A DNA stretch of 64,000 bases from an uncultured Candidatus Rokubacteria bacterium (GTDB lineage: Bacteria > Methylomirabilota > Methylomirabilia > Rokubacteriales > DASRDR01): the NCBI GenBank assembly GCA_963805625.1, contig CAWDVE010000016.1, positions 32,001 through 96,000 on the forward strand, given 5' to 3'. Each line of letters starts with the position of its first letter. The stretch's first letter is position 1. Under the pieces are notes generated by a model, which was not told the DNA's origin, made no database searches, and saw nothing but the letters and a program-made list of their open reading frames with translations. The translations under genes were made by a program, and so were the position numbers. Positions 11,146-31,434 of this stretch are shown piece after piece.

Positions 11146-11248
11146 CGACCGGCACCGCGGGCAGGCGCCCGTAGTGTCCGAATATTCGGCCGGGGTACCC
11201 GATACGGACGGGCTCAGGCCAACGACGCATGTTGCTGACTGAAAATCC

Positions 11249-11515
11249 CTGGCCGAAAGGCCAGTGTGCACGTTGGGTGTATTTGATATCATCTCCAACG
11301 TCGTTTCGCCCTTGACCGGTATCCGCTAAGTAGCTAATCTGTAAGGACGAGGTCGTGGTGCAGCCTGGTTAGCACACTGGCCTGTCAAGCAGGCGGGCAG
11401 ATCAAGGCCCCTCGGTAAGTCGCGGACTTGCCGAGGGGTTTTTCTTTGGCTGCTTGGCTGGTGGTGGGTGATTTGGGGCCCGCCGAGGGCGGTCGCGGGC
11501 ATAGTTTCGAGCATA
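11249..11515 (+). repeat. tRNA-Asp 5'-half module, copy 1 (att-like site)
   Basis: Hairpin 11249-64; TTGACC-N17-TAATCT 11312-40; tRNA nt 1-42 at 11349-90 (41/42 identical to 45971-46012); terminator 11408-47; CGGGCATAGTTT-CGAGCATA at 11496-515. Confidence 0.92.
11408..11447 (+). terminator. Intrinsic terminator after the tRNA half
   Basis: CCCCTCGGTAAGTC-GCG-GACTTGCCGAGGGG followed by TTTTTCTTT. Confidence 0.8.
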
Positions 11516-11564
11516 CCGAAATCGACCGGGCAAGACTCGTTCGTCAGGAGTCTCGCGCTACCGA

Positions 11565-12641
11565 TCAAAACGCCGAGGCGGTTCCTCGGTGCAACCGGTC
11601 TCCGGCGGCGAGGCACCGCGGACAGGCGATGCCGCCGCCGTGAAGGCCCACCTCGTAAGTGAGGCCGTTGCAGCGGCCGCACCGAGCTGGCTCCCCCGTG
11701 CGCTCGACCGGATCCCAGGTCAGCGCGAGTGGCACCTCACGGCGTTTGTCAGCAAGCGTGCCGGCAAATACGACGCGCGGCAGATAGAGTCGGAGGACGC
11801 TCAGCAGCGAGAGCTCCGCCGACAGCCGATACTTCGCCCCCAGCTCGCCCAGCCGCCCGTCGCGCTCGCGCTCGATTGCCAGGCGCTTCGATCCGAGGGC
11901 GGCCTGCTCCGAGTTGTCGGGCGGCAGTGCGGCCCGCCGTCTCTCGAGCTCCCGGATCAGCTCGGTGTAGTAGGCCCGGGCTCGCCCGCTCTCGCGGGCC
12001 AGTCGTGCCTCGAACTCTCGCCGCCGGGATCCCAGCGGGGCGGAGAGACGCTGCTCGATCTCGCGCCGCGCCACCGCGTAGGCCTCGGCGGTGGGCCGTT
12101 CCGCCATCATGGGCCACGCCTCTACGGGGTCGCCAGCGACACCGTGGCGGTCGAGCGCATCTTGGAGGCGGCGCAGGAGGCGACCGTCGGTGAGGTTCAC
12201 CGCGACCTCTAGGAGGTCCTCCTCCCGCTCGTCCGAGAGATACCGCACCCGGAAAAGGAAGAGCCCGGTCGGGACCCACCAGGGTCGCCCGCCCTGCGGG
12301 GTCCAGGCGCTCTCGAAGAAGCGATAGGCACGCCGCAGCTGGTCAGCTGTGCTCGGCGTTGCGGTCACCGCACTGTCCAGGAACGCGCGTGCCACGCGCC
12401 CGGACGCCGTAGTGTCCCGAAGCAGACGCTCCAGGGTAGGGCTGGCGAACGACACCAGCTCGGCGTCGGGCATCTCGTCGAGCAGCTCGGGGTCGAAGGC
12501 GAGCTGGCGCACCGTCAGGTCCCCGGACCCGGGTTCCGGCCACAGGACCGTGTGGAGCCCGTCGGCCCTTCGCTCCACGACACCACCCGCCTGCTCGATC
12601 GCCGTGACGGCGAACGCCTCGACTCCGCCCGGCACCTTCAC
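11565..12641 (-). CDS. YqhG-like helicase partner with coiled coil and C-terminal CxxC...CxxC
   Basis: Overlaps the SNF2 gene stop; FRVRYLSDEREEDL...VNL motif; YYTEL coiled-coil segment; CGRC/CPRC. Confidence 0.65.
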   Translation of the reverse strand: MKVPGGVEAFAVTAIEQAGGVVERRADGLHTVLWPEPGSGDLTVRQLAFDPELLDEMPDAELVSFASPTLERLLRDTTASGRVARAFLDSAVTATPSTADQLRRAYRFFESAWTPQGGRPWWVPTGLFLFRVRYLSDEREEDLLEVAVNLTDGRLLRRLQDALDRHGVAGDPVEAWPMMAERPTAEAYAVARREIEQRLSAPLGSRRREFEARLARESGRARAYYTELIRELERRRAALPPDNSEQAALGSKRLAIERERDGRLGELGAKYRLSAELSLLSVLRLYLPRVVFAGTLADKRREVPLALTWDPVERTGEPARCGRCNGLTYEVGLHGGGIACPRCLAAGDRLHRGTASAF

Positions 12642-14722
12642 GACGGGCCCCCGGCGGCGAGTACGTCGCCAAATAGCCGGTCATCGAGCGCCTTGGCCTC
12701 GAGGTAGGCGGTCTTGGCCGCGAGCAGCTGATCACCGAGGGCCTGCATCTCGGCCCGGAGGGCCGAGGGGTTCGCGGACGCGAGCCACAGGTCGGTCACG
12801 AGCTCCTCGAAGTCCTGGTCGCTGGCGAGCTGGCCCAGGATCATGTCGATCTCGCCAATCACGAGTTCGAACATGTTGATCTTGGCGTCCAGCACGTCTA
12901 GCAGCATCTCCTCGATGGTGCCCGCGGCGACCAGGTTGAACACGTGGACGTCGCGCGTCTGGCCGACCCGGGATAGCCGCCCGATCCGCTGCTCGATCCG
13001 CATCGGATTCCACGGGAGGTCGTAGTTCACGAGCCCGTGCGCGAACTGAAGATTGCGACCCTCGCCGCCGGCTTCCGTCGAGAGCAGGATCCGGGCGGGG
13101 CCTTCGAACGCGCGAACGGCGGCGTCCTTCTCGACGCGGCGCAGCGCACCGTGATAGAGGGCGAGCGGCTCACCCGCCTCGCGCAGCATCCCGGCCAGAT
13201 ACTCCTGGGTCGCACGGAAGCGGGTGAAGACCAAAAGCTTGTCCGGCCATGTGCGCACCAGGCTGAGGAGGGCGCGGCTCTTGGCGTCGTCGCCGACCGC
13301 CCGCGCCTGCTCGTCGAACCGCCGCAACTCCTGGAGGAGGGGTCCCGGACGCGTCCCGTTGACGAGGCGCTCCAGCGTCGCGGCGGCGGCCCGGGGGCTC
13401 GAACCCAACTCCATCTGGAGGGTCTGTGCCATCATCCGGGTGACCTCGCCACCCGACCGGCAGCTCTGACGGAGGAACTCCGACAGCTCGGTGTACAGCG
13501 CCTGCTCGGCTGATGTTGGCGTCACGGTCACCGTCCTGGCCACCCGGCGCGTGAGCGCCACCGCGGTGGTCGCGCGACGGTTTCGGACCATGACGTCGGT
13601 GAGGAGGCGGCGGAGGCCCTCGGGGTCCCGGGGCTGTCGGCGGTCCCCCCGGGCCACGTGATCGCGGTGGAACGCCCGGAGTGTGCTGAGCTGACCGGGC
13701 TGGAGCAGCGTGACCAGGTTGAACAGCTCGTCCAGATCGTTCTGGACCGGCGTCGCCGTAAGGAGCAGGAGGTAGGTCCGGCGGAGCCGGTTCACGAACT
13801 GCCAGAGAACGGTGCGGGCGTTCCGCAGGTGATGGGCCTCGTCCACGATCACGAGGTCGTACGCGATTTCCTCGATCACGCGGGCATGCTCCGGCCGCTT
13901 GGCCGTGTGGAAGGAGGCGACCACGCGCTCGAAGCGCTGCCAGGCCTCCCGCCCCGCTTGCCGGAACGGCTCCGCGTCGTGGCTCACGAAGTCGAGGCAG
14001 GCTTTCCGCCGCAGCTCCTCTTGCCACTGAGTCACCAGCCCGGGCGGCGCCAGGACCAGCACGCGTCGCACCAGCCGCCGCCGCCAGAGCTCGGCCAGGA
14101 TGATCGTTGCCTCTACGGTCTTGCCGAGCCCGACCTCGTCGGCCAGCAGTGCGCGTCCCCGCATCCGGTTGAGCACCGTCCTGACCGCGGTGATCTGATG
14201 CTCGTACGGGATCACGTCCCGCAGGAAGGGGAGCGAGACCAGCTCGTCGAATCCCGGGGTCAGGGCGAGCGCGTGGCCCCAGCGGTTGAGCTGGTAGGCG
14301 GACAGCGGCTCCTCGTGCCCCTCGGCGAACGCCGCGAGCACCTCGGCATCGGCGGGATCGGTGCGGACGGGGACGGCCGCGATCTCGCGCGAGGCTTCTC
14401 CCCAGGCGAGGTTGAGCGACCGCTGGCCCAGCGGTCCCACGCGAAACCGAGGAGGATCCGCCGTCTCCACGTGCAGCTCCAGCCGCTGGCCAGGCCCGGC
14501 CGTCGGGCGGAGGTCCTGCAGGCGTGGCACCTCGAGCGCGCCATGTTCTCCGTCCCACCTACCCGCCACGACGCGCCCGGATTCCTCCAGGAACTCGACC
14601 GTGGTGGGCTCTCCGGTCGGCGACACGAGGTGGCGGAATCCCCCGTTCAGAGGGATGAGCCCCGCCTCCCACGCCTCGCGCGGAACGGGGAGCTCGAACC
14701 GGTCGCCGCGTCGTATCGGCAT
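12638..14722 (-). CDS. SNF2-family helicase (YqhH-like) with an N-terminal extension of about 100 aa
   Basis: LLADEVGLGKT, IVDEAHHL, LTATPVQN, STEAGGEGRNLQ and YDLPWNPMRIEQRIGR motifs. Confidence 0.9.
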   Translation of the reverse strand: MPIRRGDRFELPVPREAWEAGLIPLNGGFRHLVSPTGEPTTVEFLEESGRVVAGRWDGEHGALEVPRLQDLRPTAGPGQRLELHVETADPPRFRVGPLGQRSLNLAWGEASREIAAVPVRTDPADAEVLAAFAEGHEEPLSAYQLNRWGHALALTPGFDELVSLPFLRDVIPYEHQITAVRTVLNRMRGRALLADEVGLGKTVEATIILAELWRRRLVRRVLVLAPPGLVTQWQEELRRKACLDFVSHDAEPFRQAGREAWQRFERVVASFHTAKRPEHARVIEEIAYDLVIVDEAHHLRNARTVLWQFVNRLRRTYLLLLTATPVQNDLDELFNLVTLLQPGQLSTLRAFHRDHVARGDRRQPRDPEGLRRLLTDVMVRNRRATTAVALTRRVARTVTVTPTSAEQALYTELSEFLRQSCRSGGEVTRMMAQTLQMELGSSPRAAAATLERLVNGTRPGPLLQELRRFDEQARAVGDDAKSRALLSLVRTWPDKLLVFTRFRATQEYLAGMLREAGEPLALYHGALRRVEKDAAVRAFEGPARILLSTEAGGEGRNLQFAHGLVNYDLPWNPMRIEQRIGRLSRVGQTRDVHVFNLVAAGTIEEMLLDVLDAKINMFELVIGEIDMILGQLASDQDFEELVTDLWLASANPSALRAEMQALGDQLLAAKTAYLEAKALDDRLFGDVLAAGGPS

Positions 14723-14852
14723 GGCTCAGTGTCGGACGGACCCCCCGCTTCGCGCAATGTGTCGGGACCGTGTCGCTCGAGAGGTCGGGCGTCAGAGGGG
14801 AATGCGGCCCCCTCGACCGGGGCGCACTGGGTTGCTCCTGTTTGCCGCGCCC

Positions 14853-15146
14853 TCAGAGGCGCGACCGCCAGTAGCCTGGCCGCCGATGGAGGTGTGCGAC
14901 CGCGACGATGAGAATCCGTGACGGCTCGACGCGGTAGAGGAGGCCGTAGGGAAACCCTCGGACGAGGGTACGCCTGAGTCGACGGCCGAAAGGGCGACCG
15001 CTGTCCGGGAACTCGAGGATCTGTTCGTAGGCTCGCCGGACCGCAAGGATGAAGTCCAGACCTAAACTCTCGACGTGGCTCTCGAAGTACCGCGCGGCTG
15101 AGACGAGCTCGGCGTCCGCCTCAGGATGAAACTCGACCCTTCTCAC
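14853..15146 (-). CDS. RelE/ParE-family toxin
   Basis: VEFHPEADAEL...FPYGLLYR...AVAHLHRRPGYW. Confidence 0.88.
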   Translation of the reverse strand: MRRVEFHPEADAELVSAARYFESHVESLGLDFILAVRRAYEQILEFPDSGRPFGRRLRRTLVRGFPYGLLYRVEPSRILIVAVAHLHRRPGYWRSRL

Positions 15147-15370
15147 CGAAGCGTCGAACGGACCTTGTCGAGCACCTGCTCCGCAGGGATGCCGGCGACC
15201 TTGCCGGATTCGAGCTCGTCGAGTCTACGCTCGGCCTCCTCAAGCCAGGCCTGCTCCGCGTCGCGGTCGGACTCCGGGTCGAGGCTGGAGATGAGGCGTT
15301 GGGCGAGTTGAGCGCGCTCCTTGGGCGGAAGCTGCAGAGCCTTTGACTCGATCTCGCGCGGGTCACCCAT
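15143..15370 (-). CDS. Addiction-module antitoxin (TIGR02574-like)
   Basis: LPPKERAQLAQRLISSLD...AWLEEAERR; 4-nt overlap with the toxin. Confidence 0.88.
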   Translation of the reverse strand: MGDPREIESKALQLPPKERAQLAQRLISSLDPESDRDAEQAWLEEAERRLDELESGKVAGIPAEQVLDKVRSTLR

Positions 15371-15489
15371 GCCCGAACGATATCACATCTGGGTGCCCCT
15401 TGAACCCCCGCCGGGAGGTGGTGGGGCGGCGAGGGCCGTATGCAGGACGACGTCGCGTCAACTGTCCGTTTCTTGTCCGTGATGGCGTC

Positions 15490-15797
15490 GGTTCCGGGTC
15501 GATCCCGGCGATGAGGTTGTCGCCCATGCCGAGGCCCACGCCGTCCCGTTCCAGGGTTCGATGGATCTCGGCCGCCGCATCGGCACCCGGCTCGTCGGGT
15601 GGAAGACACGGCAAGGCGGCGAGGAGTTCACCGACGAGCTTCAGCTGGCGCGCAGTCTTCGCCCCGGCGAGCAGCTCGAAGCGCGTGATGACGGTGGTCC
15701 GGAGCTGACCACGGTCGAGCTCCAGGGAGACCCGATTCGCCGCCGGAGCTCGGCCCTCCAGGAAGTCGATGAGCACGTCGCTGTCGGCGACCATCAT
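15490..15797 (-). pseudogene. VapC/PIN toxin with a degenerate C-terminus
   Basis: MMVADSDVLIDFL, ITRFELLAG and GMGDNLIAGI, after which homology is lost. Confidence 0.7.
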
Positions 15798-16026
15798 CGC
15801 CAGGACCTCCGGAGCGCCTCGGCCGCATCTCGCAGCGATTTGCCCTCCTGGGACGGCATGGCCCCCTTCAGGAGCACGGCGCGCTTCCGTTGCGCCCGGC
15901 CTCCGCGCGCAGGTAGGCGTCGAGGGCCTCACTCACGAACTGCGAGAACCCCTTGGCACCACGGTGGGCCGCGAGTTCGAGCAGCTTGGCGCGATGCTCC
16001 GGTTTCATCTCGATCGTCGTGCGCAT
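15794..16026 (-). pseudogene. VapB-like RHH antitoxin (frameshifted)
   Basis: MRTTIEMKPEHRAKLLELAAHRGAKGFSQFVSEALDAYL; a frameshift is needed to reach the ATGA overlap with vapC. Confidence 0.65.
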
Positions 16027-16045
16027 CAGCAGTCCTCCGGGGACC

Positions 16046-16074
16046 ATTGTCATGCACGTGCATGCATGAGTAAA
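16046..16074 (-). promoter_or_regulatory. vapBC promoter with palindromic operator
   Basis: TTTACT-N17-GACAAT on the minus strand; perfect palindrome CATGCACGTGCATG (16051-64) lying almost entirely in the spacer. Confidence 0.6.
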
Positions 16075-16085
16075 TCCGAAGGGCA

Positions 16086-16338
16086 CTGGCCAAAGAGGCC
16101 AATGATCACCCGGGCATAGTTTGGCAGGGGCGCCCTTGACCCATGTGCGCTAAGTAGCTAATCTGCAATGGGGGTCGTGGTGCAGCCTGGTTAGCACACT
16201 GGCCTGTCAAGCAGGTGGGCGAAATAGAACCCCTCGGTAAGTCGCGGACTTACCGAGGGGTTTTTCTTTGGGTGCTTGGCTGGCGGTGGGTGATTTCGGG
16301 CCTGGGGAGGGCGGTCGCGGGCATAGTTTCGGGCATAG
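16086..16338 (+). repeat. tRNA-Asp 5'-half module, copy 2
   Basis: Hairpin 16086-102; extra CGGGCATAGTTT at 16111-22; TTGACC-N17-TAATCT 16136-64; tRNA nt 1-42 at 16171-212 (42/42); perfect terminator 16228-69; tandem repeat 16318-38. Confidence 0.93.
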
Positions 16339-16419: not shown

Positions 16420-16952
16420 TTACCCGAAGTACGCCTCGAGCCAGAGCGCGAGCGTCTGGTCGTGACGGGCGAGGTCCCCGATGATGATCGGTCGCAGCTC
16501 CGTCTCGTAGCGCTCGCGCAGGAGGACCGGGTCGAGCGGAACGGTGCGGGCCAGGCGGGCGACATCCTCACGGTCGATCGGACTGTTCCGGGCCAGCTTC
16601 GAGAGCGCCAGATCGTGCGCCTCCAGGGTGAGGAGGGCAAGGCGCGCGAACCGGCCGGGCCAGAGCGGGGTGAGCCGCTCCTCGTACCGATCAGGCAGGC
16701 TCGCGACGGTCACGTGCTGGAGGTGCACCCGGTGAGCGCGGGCCAGCGCGCTGCCCGGACCGGCGAGTCCTGGAGGCGCGCGGCGTGCCTCGCGGGGATC
16801 ACCTCGAGATAGTCGAGGTCGGCCGTCGGGCGCGAGAGGCCGTAGCGCACCGCGACGACGAATCCCCCAAGACAGTGGCGCCACGACCTCCGGCAGGCGG
16901 CGTCGAGCGCCGCCAGGAACTCGCGCCACGGGGACGGCGGCTCAGGCGCGAT
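16420..16952 (-). pseudogene. DUF6036-like nucleotidyltransferase, copy A (frameshifted)
   Basis: Near-identical to 36752-37288 but with small indels near 16770 and 16880; HDLALSKLARNSPIDRED motif. Confidence 0.75.
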
Positions 16953-17623
16953 GGCGCAGCGCCTCCGCCGTCCAGTCGGTCAGGAGATTCCAGTGGCGCG
17001 CGGCGGCCGACCGGTGCGTGTCGAGCCACCGTCGCTCGGCCTCCGTGAGCGTGGCGCGGCCCGAGGGTGTCCTCGCGCGCCAGCCGGCTCCGGTCGAGGG
17101 CGGCCTCGAGCGCGCGCAGGGCCCCGAGGCGCGACCCGTCGCCCTCGCGCTCGGCCACCTCGCGCGCCAGGCTCACGACGAAGCCGAGGCGGTTCTGGAG
17201 GTCGCGCACCTTGGCCTCGCGCACGAGCCACGCCGGGTCGAGGTTCCAGTAGCGGAGGAGCAACCAGGGCAGGGCCTCGACCACGCGCGCCTCGAGCTCG
17301 GGCTGGGCGAGGGCGGTGAGCAGCACCGCGCCGGGATGCTTCGCGACACCGGGCCGGCGCGCGAGGTGGGCGAAACCCGGATAGCCGAGGGCCGCGAGGT
17401 CCTGGGCAAGCGTCGCGGCGCCGACCCGCGGCGCCACCCGGGTGGGGGGCAGGACAGTCGGCGCCAGGCTGTAGATCCGCATCGCCCGCCGCGCCACGGC
17501 GGGTGTGAGCGGCCGCTGCCCAGTCTCGAGCATGGCGAGGTAGGGCTGGGAGACCCCGAGCCGGGCGGCGGCCCGGGCCTGGGTCCACCCCCGAGACTGC
17601 CGGGCGGTTCGCAGCTGGTTCAT
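16942..17623 (-). pseudogene. XRE-HTH protein, copy A (frameshift near the 3' end)
   Basis: LRTARQSRGWTQARAAARLGVSQPYLAMLETG; collinear with 37278-37955. Confidence 0.75.
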
Positions 17624-17767
17624 CGTGGCCTGAGTCTATCACAGAGCATGTAATATCATCGTCGTGGACTCGACCAGCGGACCGGGACGCGGCTCCGTCG
17701 GGACTTCGCACGGACCGATCGAGTTCCACCTGTCTGTTCTGTTTAACCATCCGGTTGCTCATGGATG

Positions 17768-19011
17768 TGTCCCGGTCAAGAACTCCATCTGCTGGTCGCG
17801 GCTGAACTTGCCTGACCACCTCCGCCCCTCATCCGATAGAGTCGGGCCTTAGCCGCCATACCTGATGCGGAGGGCCTGATGATTCTGCTGATACTGGGGA
17901 TCGGTCTCTGGACGTTCCTGCGCGCCGTCTCTACCGGTGCGGCCGCTGTCACGCTCGAGAATCTCGCGCTCCGCCATTAACTCCTAGACTAGTCCTCCAG
18001 CGATCCATTGGCCGACCACGCCTGGCGCGGCGGGATCGGATCCTGTGGGTCTGGCTGTCAGCTCCCCTGGCGGTGGAAGTCCAGCCCGAACCCGGTCGGG
18101 CGCCCAAAGCTCGCCGCCGAGCTTCGCCGTCTGATTCATCGGATGGCGCGGGACAATCCGACGTGGGGCCGGCGGCGGATCCAGGCGGAACTCGCCCTGC
18201 TCGGCGACGTGGTCGCCGAGCTGACCGTCAGCAAATACATGCACCGACCGTTCCCTCGATCCTCGCCGACTTGGCGCGCCTTTCTGGCCGCACATGCCCG
18301 GGAAATCGTGGGCGTGGACTTCTTCCTCGTGCCGACCCTGACCTTTCGCCTTCTGTTCGTGTTCGTCGTGCTCCGCCACGACCGCCGCGAACTCCTCCAC
18401 GTCAACGTCACGGAGCACCCCACGGCCAGCTGGACCGCCCGGCAACTCGTCGAGGCGTTCCGGGACGATTCCGCTCCACGGTTTCTGCTCCGGGATCGAG
18501 ACGCGATCTACGGCGAGGCGTTCGGGCGGGGAGTCACGGGTATGGGGATCCGCGAGATCCTCACCGCCCCACGCGCACCCTGGCCGAACCCCTTCGTGGA
18601 GCGGGTGATCGGCTCCATTCGCCGCGAGTGCCTGGATCACTTCCTCATTCTGAGCGACGCCCGTCTGCGCCGCCTCCTGCGCGCCTACCTCGCCTACTAC
18701 AACAGGTGCGGCCCCATCAGGCGCTCGACAACAACAGTCCATGGCCCCGCTCGGTGCAGCCCTCAACGCGCGGGCGTGTAGTGGCGATCCCGCAGGTCGG
18801 CGGGCTCCATCACCTTTACCAGCGTGCGTCCTGATCGCGGTCGATCGCCCGGCCCGGCACGCCGCGTGTGCCGGCGGGGCCGTGTTCCCGCGCGGCGGGC
18901 GTGGTCGGCGATCCGGATCGCAGCCGCCCCGGGCGCTCGCGCAAGCCTATGGCCATTACCGCACGCGGCGGAATCGAGACAGTCTGGCCGATGCGGTTTC
19001 TGACCGGGACA
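17768..19011 (+). mobile_element. IS481/IS3-like insertion sequence (TGT...ACA ends), decayed
   Basis: Terminal inverted repeats TGTCCCGGTCAAGAACTCCATC and TGTCCCGGTCAGAAACCGCATC (18/22 match); no clear target duplication. Confidence 0.75.
17879..18834 (+). pseudogene. Integrase-core (rve) transposase with a premature stop and frameshifts
   Basis: NPTWGRRRIQAEL, VDFF, LLRDRDAIYG, PWPNPFVERVIGSIRRECLDH and GGLHHLYQR motifs. Confidence 0.85.
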
Positions 19012-19188
19012 GGTGTCCGCCGCCTGACCCGCGCACGATCGCGCCCCCCACCGGGCGCCGCCGTCTCCGTCTGTTCGCGGACCCCAGAGGGGAGGGTTCC
19101 GGGCCCTCCGCTCCAAGCTCCCGATGCACTTGGCGGCCCCGGCGGTTGTCGGCGCCTCGGGCCGGGGTCTATGCTCGGGGACGGCGCG

Positions 19189-20355
19189 ATGCGGACACCG
19201 GTCGAGATCCTGATCGTGGGCGGCGGCGTGGTCGGCTGCAGCATCGCCTATCACCTGGCCCGGCGCGGCGCGCGCGGCGTCGTCGTGCTCGAGCAGGGAA
19301 CGGTCGGCTCCGGCTCCTCCGGCAAGGCCGTCGGCGGCGTGCGCCAGCAGTTCTCGACGCCGGTGTGCGTCCGGATGAGTCAGGTGAGCCTCGAGGTCTT
19401 CCGGCGCTTCGAGGCCGAGCTGGGCGCCGACCCGCTCTTCGACCCCTGCGGGTATCTCCTCGTCACGCGCGAGACGGACGAGATGGCGGCGTTCGAGCGC
19501 AACGTCCGGATGCAACAGGGCCTCGGGGTCGACGTGCGGCTCGTCACGCCGGCCGAGATCGGGCGGATCCACCCGTGGGTTGCCGTGGGCGATCTGGTCG
19601 GCGGGGCCTTCTGTCCGACGGACGGGGTCGCCGGGCCCGCCGAGGTCACGGCCGCCTTCGGACGCCGCGCCGCCGAACTGGGGGTCCGGATCCGCGAGGG
19701 CTGCCCGGTCACGGGGATCCGCATGCGTGACGGCCGGGTGGAGGCCGTGGAGACGCCCGCGGCCACGCTCGCCCCCGGCACGCTGGTCGTCGCCGCCGGC
19801 GCGTGGTCCGGCCGAGTCGGCGAGTGGCTCGGCGTGGACATTCCCGTCCGGCCGCTCAAGCGCGAGGTCTTCGTGAGCGAGGCGCTGCCGGACCACCCGC
19901 CGGCGACGCCGATGGTGATCGAGCCGGCGCGGTCGTGGTACTGCCGCCGGGAGGGGCCCGGCGTTCTCATGGCCGGCGGGCTCGGTCCCGGGTCGACGTT
20001 CGACACCGCGGTGGACTGGGCGAACCTCGCCACCTCCGCCGAGTGGGCGGTCCACCGCATGCCCCCGCTGGAGCACGCCGCGTTCACGCGGGCCTGGGCC
20101 GGCTCGCTCGACATGACGCCCGACGGCAACGCCATCCTCGGGCCCGTGCCGAATCTCTCGGGCGTGTACGTCGCCGCGGGGTTTAGCGGACACGGGTTCA
20201 TGCACAGTCCCGCCACCGGCCAGCTCATGGCCGAGCTGATCCTCGACGGGGCGGCGCGGACGGCAGACATCGCGCCGCTCGGGCTCGAGCGCTTCGCGCG
20301 CGGCGCGTGGCTGAGCGAGGCGCTGGTGTTCAGCCGGCCGCCGGAGGAGGGCTGA
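19189..20355 (+). CDS. FAD-dependent oxidoreductase (DAO/sarcosine oxidase beta-like)
   Basis: GGGVVG, GSGSSGKAVGGVRQQF, MTPDGNAILG and GFSGHGFMHSPA motifs. Confidence 0.9.
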   Translation: MRTPVEILIVGGGVVGCSIAYHLARRGARGVVVLEQGTVGSGSSGKAVGGVRQQFSTPVCVRMSQVSLEVFRRFEAELGADPLFDPCGYLLVTRETDEMAAFERNVRMQQGLGVDVRLVTPAEIGRIHPWVAVGDLVGGAFCPTDGVAGPAEVTAAFGRRAAELGVRIREGCPVTGIRMRDGRVEAVETPAATLAPGTLVVAAGAWSGRVGEWLGVDIPVRPLKREVFVSEALPDHPPATPMVIEPARSWYCRREGPGVLMAGGLGPGSTFDTAVDWANLATSAEWAVHRMPPLEHAAFTRAWAGSLDMTPDGNAILGPVPNLSGVYVAAGFSGHGFMHSPATGQLMAELILDGAARTADIAPLGLERFARGAWLSEALVFSRPPEEG

Positions 20356-22063
20356 CCGCGCGGAGCGCGGCGGTCGCATCGGCGTCGACGCGGCCGGCCA
20401 GGTCCACCGCCACCCGGTACACGTCCCGAGCGGCCGCCACCGAGATCTTCCCGTCGAGCGCGTCGCGCAGCACCGCATCCGGCTCGCGCTCGGCCGGTGG
20501 CCCCCAGCCGCCGCCGCCGGGGGTCTCCAGGCGCACGAGGTCCCCAGCCGCGATCGTGAGGTTCGTCGCCTTCGAGGGAAGCCGGACCTCCGTTCCGTCC
20601 GCGCGGACGAGCCAGTGGCGCGAGGGCGCGCCGTCGGCGCCGCCGAGGACCCCGCCCGGCGGGACCGTCTGGGCGTCGGAGCGGTTCGTGAAGTACCCGT
20701 CGCCGGACAGGTAGCGCACGTCGCGCCGGAGCCCGAGCCCGCCCCGGTGCCGGCCGGCCCCCGCGGAGTCCGCCAGGAACTCGTATCGCTCGACCCGGAG
20801 CGGGTACTCGAGCTCGAGCGCCTCGATCGGGACGTCGAGGCAGTTGGCCATCAGGCCGAAGGTCGCATCGAGGCCGTCGCCGGCCGGGGTCGCACCCCAG
20901 CCGCCGCCCAGGATCTCGAAGAAGACGTACGGCGTGTCGACGTCGGGCCGCCGTCCGGAGACCGAGAACGAGGTGAGGTGCGCGTGCCCGCTGCCGACCG
21001 CCCGGGTGCCGCGCGCCTGGTTGAACGCCATCACGATCGTGTTCGCGATCCGTTCGAGGGTGTGAAAGCGGCCGGAGAGCGGCGCCGGCGGCACCGGCTT
21101 GACGATGCTCCGCTCGGGGAGGACGACACGGATCGGGCGGTAGCATCCCTCGTTCTGCAGGATTAGCGGGTTCACCATGTAGCGGACGGCGCAGTACACG
21201 GAGGCGTACGCCGAGGAGAGGGCGCAGTTGAACGGGCCGCGGACCTGGGGGCTCGACCCGGTGAAGTCGACGGTCACGTCGCCGTCCTCCACCGTTACCG
21301 TCACCGCGATCCGGACCGGCGTGTCCGAGATGCCGTCGCCGTCCATGAATCCCTCGGCGGCATAGCGGCCGTTCGGATAGGCGCGGAGGTCCTCCCGCAT
21401 GAGCCGCTCGGAGTTGTCGAGGCTGGCCGCGACGATGGCGGCCAGCGGCTCCGCCCCGTGGCGCTCCGCCAGCTCGAGATAGCGGCGCTCGCCGACGGTG
21501 ACCGCCGCCACCTGGGCCCTCAGGTCCCCGAGCGTCTTCCGCGGCTCGCGGATGTTGCTGGCGATCAGGTCGAAGATCTCCTCGAAGAGGACGCCCCGCC
21601 GGTAGAGCTTCAGCGGCGGGATCATCAGCCCCTCCTCGAAGATGTCCCGGGCGTCGGTCGAGATGCTACCCGCCGCCCGCCCGCCGACGTCCAGGTGATG
21701 GCCGAGGGAGCCTGCTAGGGCGACCAGCCGGTCCCCGTGGAAGACCGGCTTGAAGATCATGATGTCCGGGTGGTGCGTGCCGCCCCGGTAGGGGTGATTG
21801 AGGATCACCACGTCGCCGGGCTCGAGGGGCACGGTCTGGAGGAGCGTCTTGGCGGCCAGGCTGAGCGTGCCCTGGTGGGACGGCACGTGGTCCGCCTGGG
21901 CGATGAGCTGGCCGGCGGGATCGAACAGCGCCGTCGAGCAGTCCATCTCCTCCCGGATCAGGGTCGAGTACGCCGTCCGCATGAGGGTGGTGCCCATCTC
22001 GCGGACGGCCGAGACCAGGTAGTTGCCGACCACCTCCAGCGTGACCGGATCCACCGCCGCCAT
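20330..22063 (-). CDS. Hydantoinase B/5-oxoprolinase family subunit
   Basis: DPVTLEVV, RTAYS, NHPYRGGTHHPD, SAGAGRHRGG and ETPGGGGWG motifs. Confidence 0.92.
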   Translation of the reverse strand: MAAVDPVTLEVVGNYLVSAVREMGTTLMRTAYSTLIREEMDCSTALFDPAGQLIAQADHVPSHQGTLSLAAKTLLQTVPLEPGDVVILNHPYRGGTHHPDIMIFKPVFHGDRLVALAGSLGHHLDVGGRAAGSISTDARDIFEEGLMIPPLKLYRRGVLFEEIFDLIASNIREPRKTLGDLRAQVAAVTVGERRYLELAERHGAEPLAAIVAASLDNSERLMREDLRAYPNGRYAAEGFMDGDGISDTPVRIAVTVTVEDGDVTVDFTGSSPQVRGPFNCALSSAYASVYCAVRYMVNPLILQNEGCYRPIRVVLPERSIVKPVPPAPLSGRFHTLERIANTIVMAFNQARGTRAVGSGHAHLTSFSVSGRRPDVDTPYVFFEILGGGWGATPAGDGLDATFGLMANCLDVPIEALELEYPLRVERYEFLADSAGAGRHRGGLGLRRDVRYLSGDGYFTNRSDAQTVPPGGVLGGADGAPSRHWLVRADGTEVRLPSKATNLTIAAGDLVRLETPGGGGWGPPAEREPDAVLRDALDGKISVAAARDVYRVAVDLAGRVDADATAALRAVSPPPAAG

Positions 22064-22065
22064 CC

Positions 22066-24129
22066 TCAGCGCTCCACCACGACTAGGAGGTTCCCCATGG
22101 CGTCGACGGTGCCGCGATGCCCGGGATACACGACCACGGTCGCCCCCGGCTCCTCCACGAATGCAGGGCCGGCCACCACCGCTCCCGCGCCCAGGCCGTG
22201 GCGCTCGAAGACGGGGCAGGGGAGCCACCCCGCGGCCCCGAAGTAGGCGTGGCGTTCGCCCTTGCGCACCGGGACGTCGCCGCTCGCTCCGCCCGTCAGC
22301 GGCGCGAGCTCGGCCTTCCGCACGATGCCGATGCCGGTCACCCGGAAGTTGACGAGCTCCACCGGCTCCCGCTCGTCCGCCTGGCCGTAGCTCCGCCGGT
22401 GCGCGGCGTGGAAGCCGGCCACCAGGGCGCCGACGTCCACGATGCTCCCCGGGCGGGATGGCGGCACGGGCACGCTCACCTCGTAGGCCTGCCCGTGATA
22501 GCGCATATCGCAGGCGCGCTCGAGCAGCATGCGGGCGGGCGGGATGCCCTCGTCCCGCAGCGTGGCGAGGAGCCGCGTCTCGAGCCCGCCGAAGAGGGTC
22601 TCGATGGCGGCGCCGTCCGCCGACGTGGCGGCGACCAGGCGCGTCACCACCCGGGTGTGCTTCACGTCGGTCATCAGCAAGCCGAGCGCCGACAGCACGC
22701 TCGGATGCACGGGGACGAGGATGCGGCCGATGCCCATCTCCTCGGCCACGCGCCCGGCGTAGAGCGCGCCCGCCCCCCCGAAGGGGAGGAGCGCGAACGC
22801 GCGCGGGTCGATGCCCTGCTCGACCGAGACCGCGCGGATGCCGCTCACCATGTTGGCAACCTGGACGCGGACGATCGCCTCCGCAGCGTCGGCCAGGTCG
22901 AGGCCGAGCGGTCGCGCGATGCGGTCGGCGATGCTCGCACGGGCGGCATCCGGCGCCAGGGCGAGGTCGCCGCCCAGGAAGTAGCTCGGGTCGATCAGCC
23001 CCAGCACGACGGCCGCATCCGTGCTGGTCGGCTCCGTGCCCCCGCGGCCATAGCAGGCGGGGCCCGGGTCCGCGCCCGCGCTCTCCGGGCCGACCTTCAA
23101 CGTGCCGCGGAAGAACCGGGCAACGCTCCCGCCGCCGGCGCCGATCGTGTGCGTGTCCACCTGCGGGATCTTCACGGGGAAGCCGCCGACGCGCCCCTCG
23201 GCGGCGAGTCCCACCCGACCGTCCCGGACCAGGCTCACGTCGAGGCTCGTCCCGCCCATGTCCATGGTGATGACGTCGCGGAGGCCGGCGGCGCCGGCGA
23301 CCGCGACGGCGCCGCCGACGCCGCCCGCCGGCCCCGAGAGCAGCGTCCGCACGGGCTCGGTCCGGGCCTGGACGCTCGACATCACCCCGCCGTTGGACTG
23401 CATGATCCGGAGGGGCGCGCGGAGGCCGGCCGCGGCCAGCTCCGCCTCGAGCCGCGCCGCCAGGTGGCGGACCTTCGGCATCACGTACGCGTTGAGCGCC
23501 GTGGTACAGGTCCGCTCGTACTCGCGGAACTCGGGGCAGACCTCCGACGAGAGCGAGACGTCGAGGCCCGGTGCCGCGCGCTCGATGGCGGCGCGCAGCC
23601 GCCGCTCGTGCTCGGGGCGGAGGAACGAGAAGAGGAGGGCGACCGCCACCGCCTCGACGCCGAGGATCGCCACCTCAGCGGCCACGCGCTCCGCCTCGGC
23701 GTCGGTCAGCGGCACCACGGTCGACCCGTCCGCCGCGATTCGCTCGTCCACCTCCCGCCGCCACCGGCGGGGGACGAGCGGCTCCGGCCGCTGCAGGGCG
23801 AGGTCGAACAGCCGGTGGCGCCACTGCCGCTGGATCTCCAGCACGTCCCGCGTGCCGCGCGTGGCGACGAGGGCGGTGCGCCCGCCCTTTCGCTCGAGCA
23901 CAGCGTTGGTCGCGACCGTGGTCCCGAAGATGAAGCGCTCGATCGCCGCGGGGCGGATCCCGTGCCGCTCCTCGAGCCGCGCCAGCCCGCGGGCGATCGC
24001 GCGCGCCGGATCGGCAGGCTCGGAGGCGACCTTGAGGGTGTGGATCGCCCCCGTCTGGACGTCCAGGGCCACGAAGTCGGTGAAGGTCCCGCCGGTGTCG
24101 ACCCCCACGTGGTGCGTGCGGCGCTCCAT
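22066..24129 (-). CDS. Hydantoinase A/5-oxoprolinase family subunit
   Basis: GVDTGGTFTD, LSGPAGGV, DMGGTSLD, IGAGGGS and GADPGPACYG motifs. Confidence 0.92.
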   Translation of the reverse strand: MERRTHHVGVDTGGTFTDFVALDVQTGAIHTLKVASEPADPARAIARGLARLEERHGIRPAAIERFIFGTTVATNAVLERKGGRTALVATRGTRDVLEIQRQWRHRLFDLALQRPEPLVPRRWRREVDERIAADGSTVVPLTDAEAERVAAEVAILGVEAVAVALLFSFLRPEHERRLRAAIERAAPGLDVSLSSEVCPEFREYERTCTTALNAYVMPKVRHLAARLEAELAAAGLRAPLRIMQSNGGVMSSVQARTEPVRTLLSGPAGGVGGAVAVAGAAGLRDVITMDMGGTSLDVSLVRDGRVGLAAEGRVGGFPVKIPQVDTHTIGAGGGSVARFFRGTLKVGPESAGADPGPACYGRGGTEPTSTDAAVVLGLIDPSYFLGGDLALAPDAARASIADRIARPLGLDLADAAEAIVRVQVANMVSGIRAVSVEQGIDPRAFALLPFGGAGALYAGRVAEEMGIGRILVPVHPSVLSALGLLMTDVKHTRVVTRLVAATSADGAAIETLFGGLETRLLATLRDEGIPPARMLLERACDMRYHGQAYEVSVPVPPSRPGSIVDVGALVAGFHAAHRRSYGQADEREPVELVNFRVTGIGIVRKAELAPLTGGASGDVPVRKGERHAYFGAAGWLPCPVFERHGLGAGAVVAGPAFVEEPGATVVVYPGHRGTVDAMGNLLVVVER

Positions 24130-24239
24130 GACCCCCCTTGCGTGCGGTGGCCTGCCTATACTACCTATCCTCCATACGCCCGTCGATCCGCCGGGCGGTC
24201 CCTCTCCAGGTGAGTGGCACACGCCACAAGGAGGCGAAC

Positions 24240-25316
24240 ATGGCGAAGGTGGATGGGGTCTCGCGACGTACCGTGCTGCGGGGTGCCGCCGGCGCAGTGC
24301 TGGGGGCGCCCCTGGTTCTCGTGTCGCGGAAGTCGGTCGCCCAGGGCAAGCGGATCGTCATCCGGGATCCGGGCGGGCCGTTCACGGTGGCGTTCGCCGA
24401 GGCGTACTACAAGCCGTTCCGCGAGGCCACGGGGATCGAGGCCGTGGGGGTGGCGTCCGCCCACGAGCCGACCAGCCAGATCAAGAGCATGGTCGACACG
24501 AAGACGTACACGTGGGACATGGCACTCCTGAGCCAGGCTGCCTCCGACCAGCTACTCAAGGAGGGCGACTACCTCGAGAAGATCGGGCTCGACCACCTGC
24601 CCGGGGTCCAGGAGCTCCGGCCCGAGTTCCGGGACGCCCACAACTACGGCAACGACGTGTACACGGCCGTCATCGGCTACCGGACCGACGCCTTCAAGGG
24701 CCGGAAGGTACCGGTCTCGTGGAAGGACCTCTGGGACGTCTCAGGCATCCCCGGGCGGCGGTCCATCCGCAAGCACCCCTTCGACACCATCGAGGAGGCG
24801 CTCCTGGCTGACGGCGTGCCGAAGGACAAGCTGTACCCCTGCGACATCGACCGGGCGTTTAAGAGCCTCGATCGCATCAAGAAGGACGTTGCCGTGTGGT
24901 GGACTGGCGGAGCGCAGGCCACCCAGATGATCAAGAGCGGCGAGGTCGACATGGTGCCAACCTGGAACGCACGCATCCAGGCCGCGATCGACGAGGGTGC
25001 GCCGGCCGCCATCTCCTGGGAGCAGGGCCTGTGGGCGGTGGAGGGCTGGTCCATCCTGAAGGGGACGCCCAACGCCGACCTCTGCCGGAAGTTCGTCGAG
25101 TTCTGCGCCGACCCGAAGCGGCAGGCGGCCTACACCCGGCACCTCTCCTACGGCCCGACGAACCCGAGCGCCTACAAGTTCGTGGACCCCAAGCGGGCGC
25201 CTGTGCTCCCGACGCACCCGGACAACTATGCCCGGACGATCAAGGTCGACTACAAGTACTGGGGAAGCAACAAGGACAAGGTCACCGAGCGGTTCAACGC
25301 CTGGCTGATCTCCTGA
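24240..25316 (+). CDS. PotD/PotF-like ABC substrate-binding protein with Tat-type signal
   Basis: SRRTVLRG signal; SWKDLWD and EEALLADGV motifs. Confidence 0.88.
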   Translation: MAKVDGVSRRTVLRGAAGAVLGAPLVLVSRKSVAQGKRIVIRDPGGPFTVAFAEAYYKPFREATGIEAVGVASAHEPTSQIKSMVDTKTYTWDMALLSQAASDQLLKEGDYLEKIGLDHLPGVQELRPEFRDAHNYGNDVYTAVIGYRTDAFKGRKVPVSWKDLWDVSGIPGRRSIRKHPFDTIEEALLADGVPKDKLYPCDIDRAFKSLDRIKKDVAVWWTGGAQATQMIKSGEVDMVPTWNARIQAAIDEGAPAAISWEQGLWAVEGWSILKGTPNADLCRKFVEFCADPKRQAAYTRHLSYGPTNPSAYKFVDPKRAPVLPTHPDNYARTIKVDYKYWGSNKDKVTERFNAWLIS

Positions 25317-25440
25317 TCGCCACTCCGCGGTCCCTAATCCTCGCGACCCACGACGTGCGCTCGGGGGGACGGTCCAGCGCCCCGTCTCCCCGGGACGCTC
25401 CCGGTGTCCGGGGAGCGGGACGCGCGGGACTCGCCGCCTG

Positions 25441-26520
25441 ATGCCGGACTCCAAGCTCGAGGTGCGCGACCTCCGGAAGGCCTACGGCGCCGTCGTCGCG
25501 GTCGCCGAGGCGAACCTGGACGTCCGCGAGGGCGAGTTCGTCACGCTCCTGGGCCCCTCCGGATCCGGCAAGACGACGCTCCTCATGATCGTCGCCGGCC
25601 TGATCCAACCCGACCGCGGTGAGGTGTGGATCGATGGGCGGCTTGCCACCTACGTCCCGAGCTTCAAGCGCGACATCGGGATGGTGTTCCAGAGCTACGC
25701 CTTGTTTCCCCACCTCACCGTGTTCGAGAACATCGCGTTCCCCCTCCGCATGCGCCGGATGTCGGAAGCGACCATCGCCCAGGAGGTGCGGCGCGTCCTC
25801 GAGATCGTGCGGCTCCCCGACGTCGGGGACCGCCTGCCCCGGGCGCTCTCGGGCGGGCAGCAACAGCGGGTGGCGCTGGCCCGCTGCATCGTGTACCGCC
25901 CCTCGATCGTGCTCATGGACGAGCCGCTGGGGGCGCTCGACAAGAAGCTCCGCGACCAGATGCAGCTCGAGATCAAGCACCTGCACACCGCGCTCGGGAT
26001 CACGGTCCTCTACGTCACGCACGACCAGGAAGAGGCCATGATCATGTCCGACCGGATCTGCCTGATGAACGACGGGCGCATCGAGCAGATCGGGTCGCCC
26101 CAGGAGCTGTACTTCAGGCCGCGGACGCTCTTCGCCGCCGACTTCCTCGGGGAGTCGAACATGTTGGACGCCACCGTTCTCGCGGTCGAGGGCGGCCTCC
26201 TCGTCCTCGGCGGGACCGCGGGCGCGGGTCTCCGCGCCCGGGCGGCGCCGAGCGTCCGGCTGGGCGATCGCGTCAAGCTGGTGGTCCGGCCGGAGCGCCT
26301 CGCCCTCCTCGGTCCCGGCGAGGAGGCGGAGAACGTGCTGGACGGTGTGCTCCGCGAGGTGATCCTGGTCGGCGGCGTGACGAAGTACTACGTCGTCGTC
26401 GGGGACGGGCGGACGGTGTCGGCGGCGCAGCTCACAGCCGGGCCGCCCGGGCGGATCGCCGCCGACGCCAAGGTGCGGGTGGGCTGGGCCACGGACAGCG
26501 GCGTGGTGCTGCCGGCGTGA
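25441..26520 (+). CDS. PotA-like ABC ATP-binding protein
   Basis: [29 protein letters not shown]; TOBE-like C-terminus. Confidence 0.92.
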
Positions 26521-26575
26521 TCCCCCGGGCCGAAGGCCGTCCGATCAGTTCCTCGAGCGGGGCCAGGGCCGCCTG

Positions 26576-28384
26576 ATGAGCTCGGGCGAGGCTGCGGTGT
26601 CGCGGCGGGCCCGCCGGCCGCCCCTCCGGCTGCCGTGGGCCCCGCTCCTGCCGGCGCTCGGCTTCCTGGCGGTCGTCTTCGTCTACCCGGTGCTCCAACT
26701 CCTGTGGCTCTCCGTTGTGGACCGGAGCGGCGCGCTGACCGGGGCCCACTACGCGCGCCTGGCGGCGACGCCGGTGTACGCCCAGGTGCTCCTCATCACG
26801 TTCAAGATCGCGGCCTGGACCACCGGGCTCTGCATCCTGGGCGGCTACCCGGTGGCCTACGTCCTGGCCACCGCCGGAGCCCGCTGGCGCGGCGTACTGA
26901 CCCTCTGCGTGCTGCTCCCCTTCTGGACGAGCTTCCTCGTCCGGACGTTTGCCTGGATCGTGCTCCTCGGGCGCAACGGCGCGGTGAACGGCCTACTTCA
27001 GGCGATGGGCGTGATCGACGCTCCGACCGAGCTGATCTACAACTTCACCGGCGTGATGATCGGGATGACGCACGCCCTCATGCCGCTCGGCGTGCTGACG
27101 ATGGTGGCGGTGATGGAGAGCATCGATCCGAACCTGGGCCGGGCGGCGGCGACGCTCGGTGCGCGCGGCGGGCAGGCGTTCTGGCGCGTCTATTTTCCCC
27201 TGTCGCTGCCCGGAGTGGCCGCGGCCGGCCTGCTGGTCTTCATTACCGCGCTCGGCTTCTTCATCACGCCCGCACTCCTGGGTGGCCGCCGCGAGACGAT
27301 GATCACGCAGATCATCATCGAGCAGGTCCAGGACCTCCTGAACTGGGCGTTCGCGGGAGCGATCTCACTCCTCCTGCTGGTCTCGGCGATGATCGTCTTC
27401 TACCTCTACGACCGGGCGCTCGGCATGTCGACGCTCGCCGGTGAGGCCCCGCCCGATCGCCGGAGCGGCCGCGGCAACTCCATCGGCCGGGTCGCCGCGT
27501 GGGCTGGCTGGCGCGTGGCGGGAGGGATCGGCTGGCTCGCCGATCGCCTGGCAGACGCCCGCGAGCGAGTGTTCCCGGCGCGCGCCGACCGTCCCGGCCG
27601 GCGGTGGGGGCGCGGCCTCCAGTGGGTCACGGCGCTCCTGGTCATCGCCTTCCTCGTGCTCCCGGCATTCTTCATCGTGCCCGTCTCGTTCACGACCGAG
27701 GCGTTCATCGAGTGGCCGCCGCGGGGCTTCACGCTCCGGTGGTACGAGGTCTACCTCGGGTCCCGGCAGTGGATCGGGGCGACCGTCCGATCGTTCGGGG
27801 TGGGGGTCGCCACCGCAGCCCTGGCGATGCTGATCGGCACGCCGGCCGCGTTCGTCCTCGCCCGGCGGAGCATCCCGGGGCGGACGGCGGCCCTGGCACT
27901 CGTCCTGTCCCCGCTCATCATCCCGCGCATGATCATCGCCGTCGCCCTGTTCTACCTTTACGCCCGCGTGGGGCTGGTCGGCTCGCCGCTCGGCCTGGTG
28001 CTCGGCCACACGGTGCTGGCCGTGCCCTACGTGATCGTCACCGTGATGGCGGTGCTGAAGACGTACGACGAGCGGCTCGATCACGCCGCCTGGAGCCTGG
28101 GCGCCAGTCGCCCGCGCACGATCTGGCACGTGACCTTTCCCCTGATCCGCGCCGGGCTGATCGCCGCCTTCCTGTTCGCGTTCGTCACGTCCTTCGACGA
28201 GCTGACGATCGCCCTGTTCGTGACCGGTGGGCTGGCCACCACGCTCCCGAAGCAGATGTGGGACGAGGCGCTCTTCAAGGTCACGCCGACCCTCGCGGCG
28301 GTGTCCGCTATCCTGCTCGTCTTCGTCACGGTGATGATCGTGCTCGCGGAGTACTTTCGCCAGCGCGCCGTCCGCGCGACCTGA
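26576..28384 (+). CDS. Fused double ABC permease (PotB-PotC-like)
   Basis: Two permease domains (PFWTSFLVRTFAW... and SFDELTIALF). Confidence 0.88.
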   Translation: MSSGEAAVSRRARRPPLRLPWAPLLPALGFLAVVFVYPVLQLLWLSVVDRSGALTGAHYARLAATPVYAQVLLITFKIAAWTTGLCILGGYPVAYVLATAGARWRGVLTLCVLLPFWTSFLVRTFAWIVLLGRNGAVNGLLQAMGVIDAPTELIYNFTGVMIGMTHALMPLGVLTMVAVMESIDPNLGRAAATLGARGGQAFWRVYFPLSLPGVAAAGLLVFITALGFFITPALLGGRRETMITQIIIEQVQDLLNWAFAGAISLLLLVSAMIVFYLYDRALGMSTLAGEAPPDRRSGRGNSIGRVAAWAGWRVAGGIGWLADRLADARERVFPARADRPGRRWGRGLQWVTALLVIAFLVLPAFFIVPVSFTTEAFIEWPPRGFTLRWYEVYLGSRQWIGATVRSFGVGVATAALAMLIGTPAAFVLARRSIPGRTAALALVLSPLIIPRMIIAVALFYLYARVGLVGSPLGLVLGHTVLAVPYVIVTVMAVLKTYDERLDHAAWSLGASRPRTIWHVTFPLIRAGLIAAFLFAFVTSFDELTIALFVTGGLATTLPKQMWDEALFKVTPTLAAVSAILLVFVTVMIVLAEYFRQRAVRAT

Positions 28385-28394
28385 GGAGGTGCCC

Positions 28395-30553: not shown

Positions 30554-31434
30554 TGGCGATCCTCCTCGACGGCCGGTCGCGGATCGTCATCCAGGGGATC
30601 ACCGGGAACATCGGCACCAACTTCGCCCGCGAGACCAAGCGCCTGTACCCGGACGTCTTGGTCGCCGGCGTGACGCCGGGCCGCGGGGGCCAGAGCGTGG
30701 CCGGCGTCCCGGTCTACGACGTGGTGGCCGACGCGGTCAGCCGCCACGGCGCCGATGCCGCGCTCATCTGCGTCCCGCCCGCCGCGGTGAAGGACTCCGT
30801 CATCGAGGCGCTCGACGCGAGCATCCGGCTCGTCGCCGTCTATGCGGAGGGCGTGCCGCTCCACGACGCGGTCCAGCTGGTCGCCTACGCGCGCGCGGCG
30901 GGCGCGCGCCTCCTCGGGCCCAACGCCGCCGGCGTCCTCTCGCCGGGCAAGGCCGGAATGGGCGAGATCACGGAGGGCTACTTCCCGACCCGCCCGGGGC
31001 GGCTCGGCATCGTGTCGAAGAGCGGGAGCATCATGTACGAGACGGTGGCGCTGACCACCGACATCGAGGGGCAGAGCACGATGGTGTGCCTGGGGGGCGA
31101 CCCGATCCTCGGGACGACGTTCGCGGACGTGCTCCCGTTGTTCGAGGCCGATCCCGAGACCCACGCCGTGATCCTGGTCGGGGAGATCGGCGGCCCCGAC
31201 GAGCTGGCCGCCGCGGACTACGTCCGCGGGATGCGGACGCCGGTGGTGGCCTACGTGTGCGGTCACGCGGCGCCCCCCGCCCGTAAGATGGGCCACGCGG
31301 GGGCGATCGTGAGCGGCGGACGCGACACCGCGGCCGCGAAGAGCGAGGCACTCCGGGCGGCCGGGGTGCGGGTCGCGCGGACCTTGCCGGAGGTGCCGGC
31401 GCTCGTGCAGGCCGCGCTCGCCGGGGCCTGCTGA
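30553..31434 (+). CDS. Succinyl-CoA synthetase alpha-like subunit
   Basis: [22 protein letters not shown] and KMGHAGA (phospho-His). Confidence 0.88.

Follow-up and report, generated by a model that had tools for sequence, protein, structure and literature searches.

Three sites in a 64,000-nt stretch of an uncultured Candidatus Rokubacteria genome (hereafter the window) carry, in the same order, a promoter-like motif, the 5′ half of a tRNA-Asp gene and a hairpin with a T-tract, which raises the question of whether they are small-RNA genes or traces of another process. The initial annotation had read them as self-contained genes for a tRNA-half RNA whose structure is under selection, possibly a decoy, regulator or antitoxin, and had offered as a fallback that the terminator insulates cargo from the promoter of an attachment (att) site. 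All parts that it described, namely promoter motif, tRNA half, GCCTG repeat and hairpin with T-tract, were found at the three sites (Table 1), and the fallback turned out to be the best-supported reading. We consider it very probable that the three sites are attP-like junctions of mobile blocks, stacked upstream of the sole tRNA-Asp gene by a tyrosine integrase working in an orientation that rebuilds its target from the 5′ side. This is probably a rare but known mode of insertion and not a new small-RNA gene, and the ~100-base RNA is probably a by-product.

Architecture of the three sites and their putative target

Table 1 Features of the three tRNA-Asp half sites, their putative target and the cargo blocks (window positions)
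Feature	Position	Strand	Remarks
Site 1, upstream inverted repeat	11247..11266	.	arms resemble anticodon-stem core; 6-nt spacer
Site 1, predicted sigma-70-type promoter	11312..11340	+	putatively element-supplied; -35 TTGACC, 17 nt, -10 TAATCT
Site 1, tRNA-Asp 5′ half	11349..11390	+	single change, G2A
Site 1, anticodon loop	11382-11388	+	within tRNA half; putative crossover core
Site 1, 14-bp hairpin and T-tract	11408..11447	+	predicted intrinsic terminator; part of right att arm
Site 1, right direct-repeat pair (GGGCATAG type)	11497..11516	+	putative integrase arm-binding sites; 108 nt past loop
Site 2, upstream inverted repeat	16084-16104	+	
Site 2, left arm repeat, single	16112-16119	+	
Site 2, predicted promoter	16136..16164	+	TTGACC-N17-TAATCT
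Site 2, tRNA-Asp 5′ half	16171..16212	+	identical to intact gene
Site 2, hairpin and T-tract	16230..16269	+	
Site 2, right arm repeat pair	16319..16338	+	
Site 3, upstream inverted repeat	36286..36306	.	left arm repeats missing
Site 3, predicted promoter	36318..36346	+	TTGACC-N17-TAATCT
Site 3, tRNA-Asp 5′ half	36356..36397	+	identical to intact gene
Site 3, hairpin and T-tract	36415..36454	+	
Site 3, right arm repeat pair	36504..36523	+	
Extended -10-type motif (TGGTAGAGT) of native-type left flank, predicted	45889..45897	+	differs from junction flanks
Intact tRNA-Asp(GTC)	45971..46048	+	putative target; sole one found in genome
Cargo block 1	11565..16086	-	358-aa unknown protein, SNF2 helicase, ParE toxin-antitoxin pair, PIN toxin with small partner ORF
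Cargo block 2	16420..35597	.	DUF6036 nucleotidyltransferase and HTH pair, IS fragment (rve_3), metabolic and transport genes
Cargo block 3	36752..45776	.	second DUF6036 and HTH pair, unassigned ORFs, PIN_3 gene, Transposase_29 element in pieces

Promoter and tRNA half are 8, 6 and 9 nt apart at sites 1, 2 and 3, respectively. The 42-nt half matches the intact tRNA-Asp exactly at two sites and with one change at the other; identity spans bases 1-42, with the anticodon loop at bases 34-40, and stops 2 nt past the loop. The hairpin has a 14-bp stem and a 3-nt loop (11408-11438, 16230-16260 and 36415-36445), with TTTTTCTTT directly after each, and a single T-A/T-G pair is the sole difference in the stem among the three copies. 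Since the copies form a 171-nt repeat family with 89-100% identity, the feature exceeds chance. At all three sites the two members of the GGGCATAG pair stand 12 nt apart, at the same distance from the anticodon loop. The whole unit, which ends in this integrase-arm-type pair, spans ~240 bp and extends at both ends past the interval initially annotated; its span agrees with the ~250-bp attP given in the available part of PMC4383910. On the left side, no arm repeat was found within one mismatch at site 1, site 2 has one, and site 3 has lost them.

Upstream of the promoter, most junctions have an inverted repeat, CACTGGC-N6/7-GCCAGTG. Apart from the spacer, its arms correspond to the sequence next to the anticodon loop, so that it looks like a second core site, and it was found with up to two mismatches in 3 of 1500 random 160-nt windows. 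A Val junction has a different inverted repeat at the upstream position. IHF binding is not claimed: the best site matches have 2-3 mismatches to the IHF consensus, and ~500 matches as good occur on the window's two strands.

The tRNA-Asp(GTC) gene is the sole one of its kind among the 63 tRNA genes called in the genome and lies 9.6 kb beyond the third site, with a native-type flank before it and an IS directly before the gene. All six tRNA-Asp fragments found in the genome are 5′ halves. Four of them stand upstream of the tRNA on contig C16, on the same strand, the fourth being 35 kb upstream of site 1; the remaining two are an inverted copy ~500 kb away, far downstream, and a copy on contig C22. 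For other tRNAs, among them Lys-CTT, Gly-CCC, Glu-CTC and Arg-TCT, the genome holds many 3′ fragments, so that the Asp halves mirror these common arrays.

The layout itself can be read directly at each site, and recombination, arm binding and transcription, as predicted from sequence, would produce it in the following way. Crossover would take place in the anticodon loop, in the orientation that restores the tRNA from its 5′ side. Integration would then cut the 3′ half of the host gene off from its promoter and 5′ half, which is why the incoming element would have to bring a promoter and 5′ half of its own. The displaced promoter and half would read into the other arm of the element, whose hairpin and T-tract would end transcription from the spare promoter ahead of the cargo genes. 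Later arrivals would push earlier joints upstream, each leaving another promoter-half-hairpin joint, from which an RNA of ~100 nt would arise as a by-product. As the blocks carry no integrase, they may have been moved in trans or may now be fixed. A simple single stack does not predict the native-type flank on the intact tRNA despite the upstream joints, and the dispersal of two of the six copies also fits it poorly.

Several minor features were seen around these arrays. The Lys-CTT 3′ fragments number ~15 copies, many on contigs without the tRNA; 3′ fragment arrays occur for Lys-CTT on C7, C2 and C20, for Gly-CCC on C10 and C17, for Arg-TCT on C12 and C17, and for Glu-CTC on several contigs. 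Arm-repeat sites lacking a tRNA half were found at C22:28959, 29150 and 47397 and are probably decayed junctions; one of the three has an upstream inverted repeat and a -35 box. Just past the intact tRNA-Asp stands a second repeat pair (GGTGCCC twice, 46096-46113), and a short integrase remnant lies on the minus strand at 48311-48454, which together suggest that an ordinary 3′-type element used the same tRNA too. A tRNA-Ser(CGA) called by ARAGORN at 55552-55622 is inside a beta-lactamase/NamZ ORF, was missed by Rfam and is likely false.

Junction flanks, integrases and other targets in relatives

We gathered 62 distinct tRNA-Asp sites, comprising 34 with a half plus hairpin, 24 intact genes and 4 others. 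Among the genome-derived sites of the family, all three recurring types of left flank precede both half-plus-hairpin sites and intact tRNA-Asp genes: 13 and 4 times, respectively, for the TTGACC type, 4 and 3 times for the TTGACAGG type, and 2 and 3 times for the native type. Matched flank pairs share 37-39 of their last 40 nt; for example, the 40 nt before the half of site 2 match those before the intact tRNA-Asp of genome G003 at 37 positions. An intact tRNA-Asp follows a junction-type flank at seven loci of relatives and an integrase-end flank at two more, none of them in this genome. If the preferred reading is true, the sole and presumably essential tRNA-Asp of many members of the genus runs on a promoter from mobile DNA. 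No conserved gene was found upstream of the native-type flank among eight such flanks.

The integrase-end flanks belong to G004 and G008, where the gene for a 361-aa PF00589 tyrosine integrase (residues H294-x-x-R297, H320 and Y329) terminates on the GGGCATAG pair, leaving 71 nt to the intact tRNA-Asp; in G004 a small HTH gene precedes it. These are the only array-bearing genomes of the genus with a close integrase at the tRNA. A cognate integrase was not found in this genome; the best match there shares 56% identity and falls among tRNA-Arg(CCT) integrases. No match to the hairpin pattern was obtained in viral contigs, and thus no phage carrier was found. At 30 loci of integrase homologs, an intact tRNA lies downstream on the same strand in 10 cases (Asp, Met, Arg, Val, SeC and one doubtful Leu) and is convergent in 11, while none was called in 9. 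The two orientations are interspersed on a quick tree, built without four short rows and two duplicates, and monophyly of the 5′-type integrases was not supported by it (7 changes for 8 rows, against a shuffled mean of 7.3). The family appears to have swapped between 3′ and 5′ restoration more than once, making it a tractable case for the study of orientation flips. Two pairs of integrases that are closely related on the quick tree (L064 and L065, L074 and L085) have opposite orientations to the tRNA, and one opposite-orientation pair uses the same tRNA-Arg(CCT), which suggests repeated flips of target orientation.

The hairpin-plus-arm module is not confined to tRNA-Asp. It follows halves of Val-TAC, Val-CAC, Lys-TTT and Arg-TCT, and it also occurs after a reversed tRNA-Met 3′ fragment and at one non-tRNA target, so that no tRNA half need run into it. 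Stacks at other tRNAs were seen in G019 (Val-TAC) and G036 (Val-CAC), and identity likewise breaks off at the anticodon loop when the half is from Val, Lys or Arg. The distance from loop to hairpin is 19-20 nt in all 12 tRNA-derived rows, five further loci having yielded no row under the filter applied. Between hairpin and arm the distance varies from 86 to 92 nt and equals 89 nt in 28 of 36 sites, the repeat pattern having been widened to take in two divergent cases. That the spacing is constant in either orientation suggests a site of DNA recombination. Across 12 representatives the hairpin is the sole consensus structure, and two-sided changes were seen at 3 of its 17 pairs. In the reversed Met case the hairpin is followed by 3 T, compared with 5-7 elsewhere; although a single case, this would fit a hairpin that took on a terminator role where it faces transcription from a tRNA promoter. 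At the non-tRNA target (L149 and L071, G039 C85), the hairpin-and-arm module is accompanied by a related, stop-interrupted integrase.

Transcription, RNA structure and the D-stem variant

The pattern TTGAC-N18-TANNNT occurs 182 times in the 7.27-Mb genome and five times in the window, three of these being at the sites described here, and it stands upstream of 14 of the 63 tRNA genes. Positions 1, 2 and 6 of the -10 box are kept in 21, 21 and 22 of 23 distinct promoters; the patterns used for arms and promoters were in part adjusted to these same data. A generic scanner called neither the promoter (TAATCT matches the consensus at 3 of 6 positions) nor the hairpin at the sites, and at the Rfam gathering threshold the intact tRNA was the sole match in the window, with no RNA family at the sites. 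Judged from these motifs, promoter and terminator appear functional and a short RNA is likely made, and to this extent the small-RNA reading stands; the selection that it invoked is not supported by the evidence offered for it. A screen of sequencing runs gave 21 candidates, each with at most 0.15 of the query words. In the four runs examined, which consist of low-depth assembled contigs from relatives, transcript ends did not pile up, and some contigs cross the promoter or continue beyond the hairpin.

The predicted 99-nt RNAs fold more stably than shuffles (z -4.2 to -4.6). As the 52-nt half with its shifted hairpin but without the terminator folds no better than shuffles (z +0.46 and +1.07), the fold signal is that of the terminator hairpin. 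The claim that the stems vary only to G-U pairs holds among the three copies and fails among 32 distinct junction sequences, where three terminator cells are unpaired; the G-U changes taken as a sign of selection amount to two single transitions among three related copies. The terminator shows no two-sided change in these 32 sequences. Neither does the shifted hairpin, in which none of five pairs changed on both sides and one G-C became G-U in 2 of the 32, nor does it have a counterpart in modules with other tRNA halves. It is better explained as the tRNA's own GCCTG meeting the right core sequence of the element. Covariation beyond the terminator, which had been put forward as a check on homologs, was present in one D-stem pair.

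In this pair, at the top of the D-stem, C13-G24 became G13-C24, the sole two-sided change in an alignment of 33 sequences. It raises the alternative that, in the swap-bearing lineage at least, the transcripts of the joints were co-opted and now function as a tRNA-half RNA, be it as decoy, regulator or antitoxin; we regard this as quite improbable, and it could coexist with an att origin. In its fuller form, joints in one Rokubacteria genus would have turned into promoter-driven, terminated tRNA-Asp 5′-half RNA genes with a D-stem allele of their own that the working tRNA does not take up, under selection as RNAs acting on neighbouring tRNA-directed toxins or on translation; we give this a similarly low chance. 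Of 20 genome-derived junction halves, 7 have the swap and one other has G24C alone, and the swap is in none of 14 intact family tRNAs, a distribution that also sits poorly with the att reading, under which every half may serve as a working tRNA. The variant had 22 metagenome matches, of which 19 continue into the hairpin, one is cut off, and two (one sequence) extend 9 nt into the native 3′ half before breaking, leaving no intact tRNA among them. Across 251 genomes of the phylum, searched with two patterns, no undamaged donor gene for the variant was found, the one full-length variant gene being damaged. Co-option would also suit the conservation of the -10 box noted above and the divergence per site, which is 0.035 in junction halves, 0.51 in the linker and 0.27 downstream. 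Against it, the swap is probably one inherited event, and its depletion behind TTGACC-type flanks (8 of 13 halves versus 0 of 4 intact genes) is not significant, with a Fisher p of 0.08 from non-independent rows. Among 13 viral matches, 7 with this D-stem were called intact tRNA-Asp genes by ARAGORN, which places the D-stem within tRNA cloverleaf space, and since the search pattern fixed positions 4-27 in 13 of the 20 variant rows, these cannot show conservation. Moreover, shuffled sequences fold as well as the halves (z -1.2 to +1.1), the tRNA targets have no common structure ahead of the hairpin, and no transcript ends were seen in the four low-depth runs from relatives. The predicted fold hides part of the anticodon in a stem, which would make the RNA a poor mimic for an anticodon nuclease.

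Processed 5′ tRNA halves are cleavage products, and complete phage tRNAs, in the PARIS paper, are said to counter anticodon nucleases. The resemblance to both lies in a tRNA 5′ half beside PIN and other toxin genes; the half here differs in being encoded in DNA within an att site and in lacking a normal anticodon stem-loop. The D-stem swap is absent from the three window sites and from all 41 parsed short tRNAs of this genome. As a residual signal, it offers a concrete handle on whether by-product RNAs gain function. Swap halves (C13G and G24C, some with A28G) were recorded at G000 C16:7879 and C16:579709 and at L011, L012, L015, L046 and L055, and the copy at G000 C22:52785 has G24C alone.

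Rival mobile-element readings, known islands and cargo

Two further readings concern how the blocks move. They might form an integron-like cassette system still in use, with integrase-free toxin-antitoxin and defence-like blocks excised and reordered by an integrase acting in trans, which is a variant of the att reading that differs in whether the joints stay active and which we hold to be unlikely. The three blocks, 4.8, 20.2 and 9.6 kb in size, contain no recombinase, and no integrase was found in them or near the sites; modules are reshuffled among the arrays of several genomes, right arms and their spacing are intact at all three sites, and a close integrase at the tRNA is confined, among array-bearing genomes of the genus, to the two noted above. 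The state of the left arm repeats described above argues against joints that still work, as do the large size and mixed contents of the blocks, which include IS pieces. Nor is this an integron cassette array with attC sites and IntI, as the joints are tRNA-derived and a related integrase scored 25.6 bits against TIGR02249 (cut-off 265). The scatter of the six copies, one of them inverted ~500 kb away and one on another contig, could instead suggest a self-spreading short repeat derived from a tRNA, similar to a MITE or SINE. We find this extremely improbable, since the sequences left and right of the anticodon loop combine independently of each other, the module changes tRNA identity, an integrase gene abuts the same repeats in relatives, and no terminal inverted repeats were seen in the six-copy alignment.

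Stacked att junctions, the preferred reading, have precedents in the available parts of the papers cited here. In Islander, a 5′ fragment was counted in 159 of 3919 tRNA islands, and tandem arrays are described (PMC4383910). As in those 5′-fragment islands, crossover here would occur at the anticodon loop, a co-oriented 5′ fragment lies upstream, arrays are in tandem and the att site is ~250 bp long; the integrase at the tRNA-Asp of G004 and G008 belongs, like those of the islands, to the tyrosine family (PMC4383910). Four of the six halves lie upstream of the intact gene and co-oriented with it, as 5′ fragments do there. The window differs in that its blocks have no integrase, four halves stand upstream on one contig with two elsewhere, and the intact gene has a native-type flank. 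Islander's integrase filter would reject such blocks; with an integrase per island present in G004 and G008 and missing here, they are integrase-free derivatives and not Islander members. If the preferred reading is true, the joints map an integrase-free island stack that is missed by island finders requiring an integrase. Recombination at the 5′ side is considerably less frequent, and arrays arise by site reuse (PMC6563490). According to PMC6563490 and PMC1635311, which cite it, the reverse-orientation element of Zhao and Williams (2002) recombines through the 5′ part of a tRNA gene, as proposed here, a type much rarer than the 3′ one. dusA islands likewise give their target a new 5′ end with putative -35 and -10 boxes, the old 5′ end marking the far boundary; unlike the window blocks, they use a protein-coding target and each carries its own integrase (PMC4482086). 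Tycheposons of Prochlorococcus stack at tRNA genes with partial tRNA copies between elements, as seen here, newcomers displacing older ones and relics accumulating; they differ in hosts and gene content, and the available part of their description has no promoter-half-terminator joint (bioRxiv 10.1101/2020.12.28.424599). A literature search that covered few subscription journals returned none that deals with this array or with tRNA-half RNAs from att sites. tRNA fragments derived from integration have been mistaken for genes (PMC9897764), and a unit of promoter, tRNA half and terminator can, as a caution, pass for a small-RNA gene.

The cargo genes are mostly oriented towards the site, and cargo modules adjoin such joints in other genomes, in other orders and at 84-96% identity. 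The SNF2 helicase region (11565-14722) resembles DISARM DrmD and BREX BrxHI below their cut-offs and, with the 358-aa unassigned partner of the helicase, may be a defence module; a 96%-identical piece of it adjoins a junction in G011. Long ORFs at 38318-43260 had no Pfam, NCBIfam or PADLOC match, and this region is 65% similar to C10:2010548-2013911, near another integrase. The HTH and DUF6036 nucleotidyltransferase pair, which resembles a toxin-antitoxin pair, occurs twice (16420-17623 and 36752-38033, 89% identical), each time directly after a junction, and also follows junctions in G003, G008 and G013.
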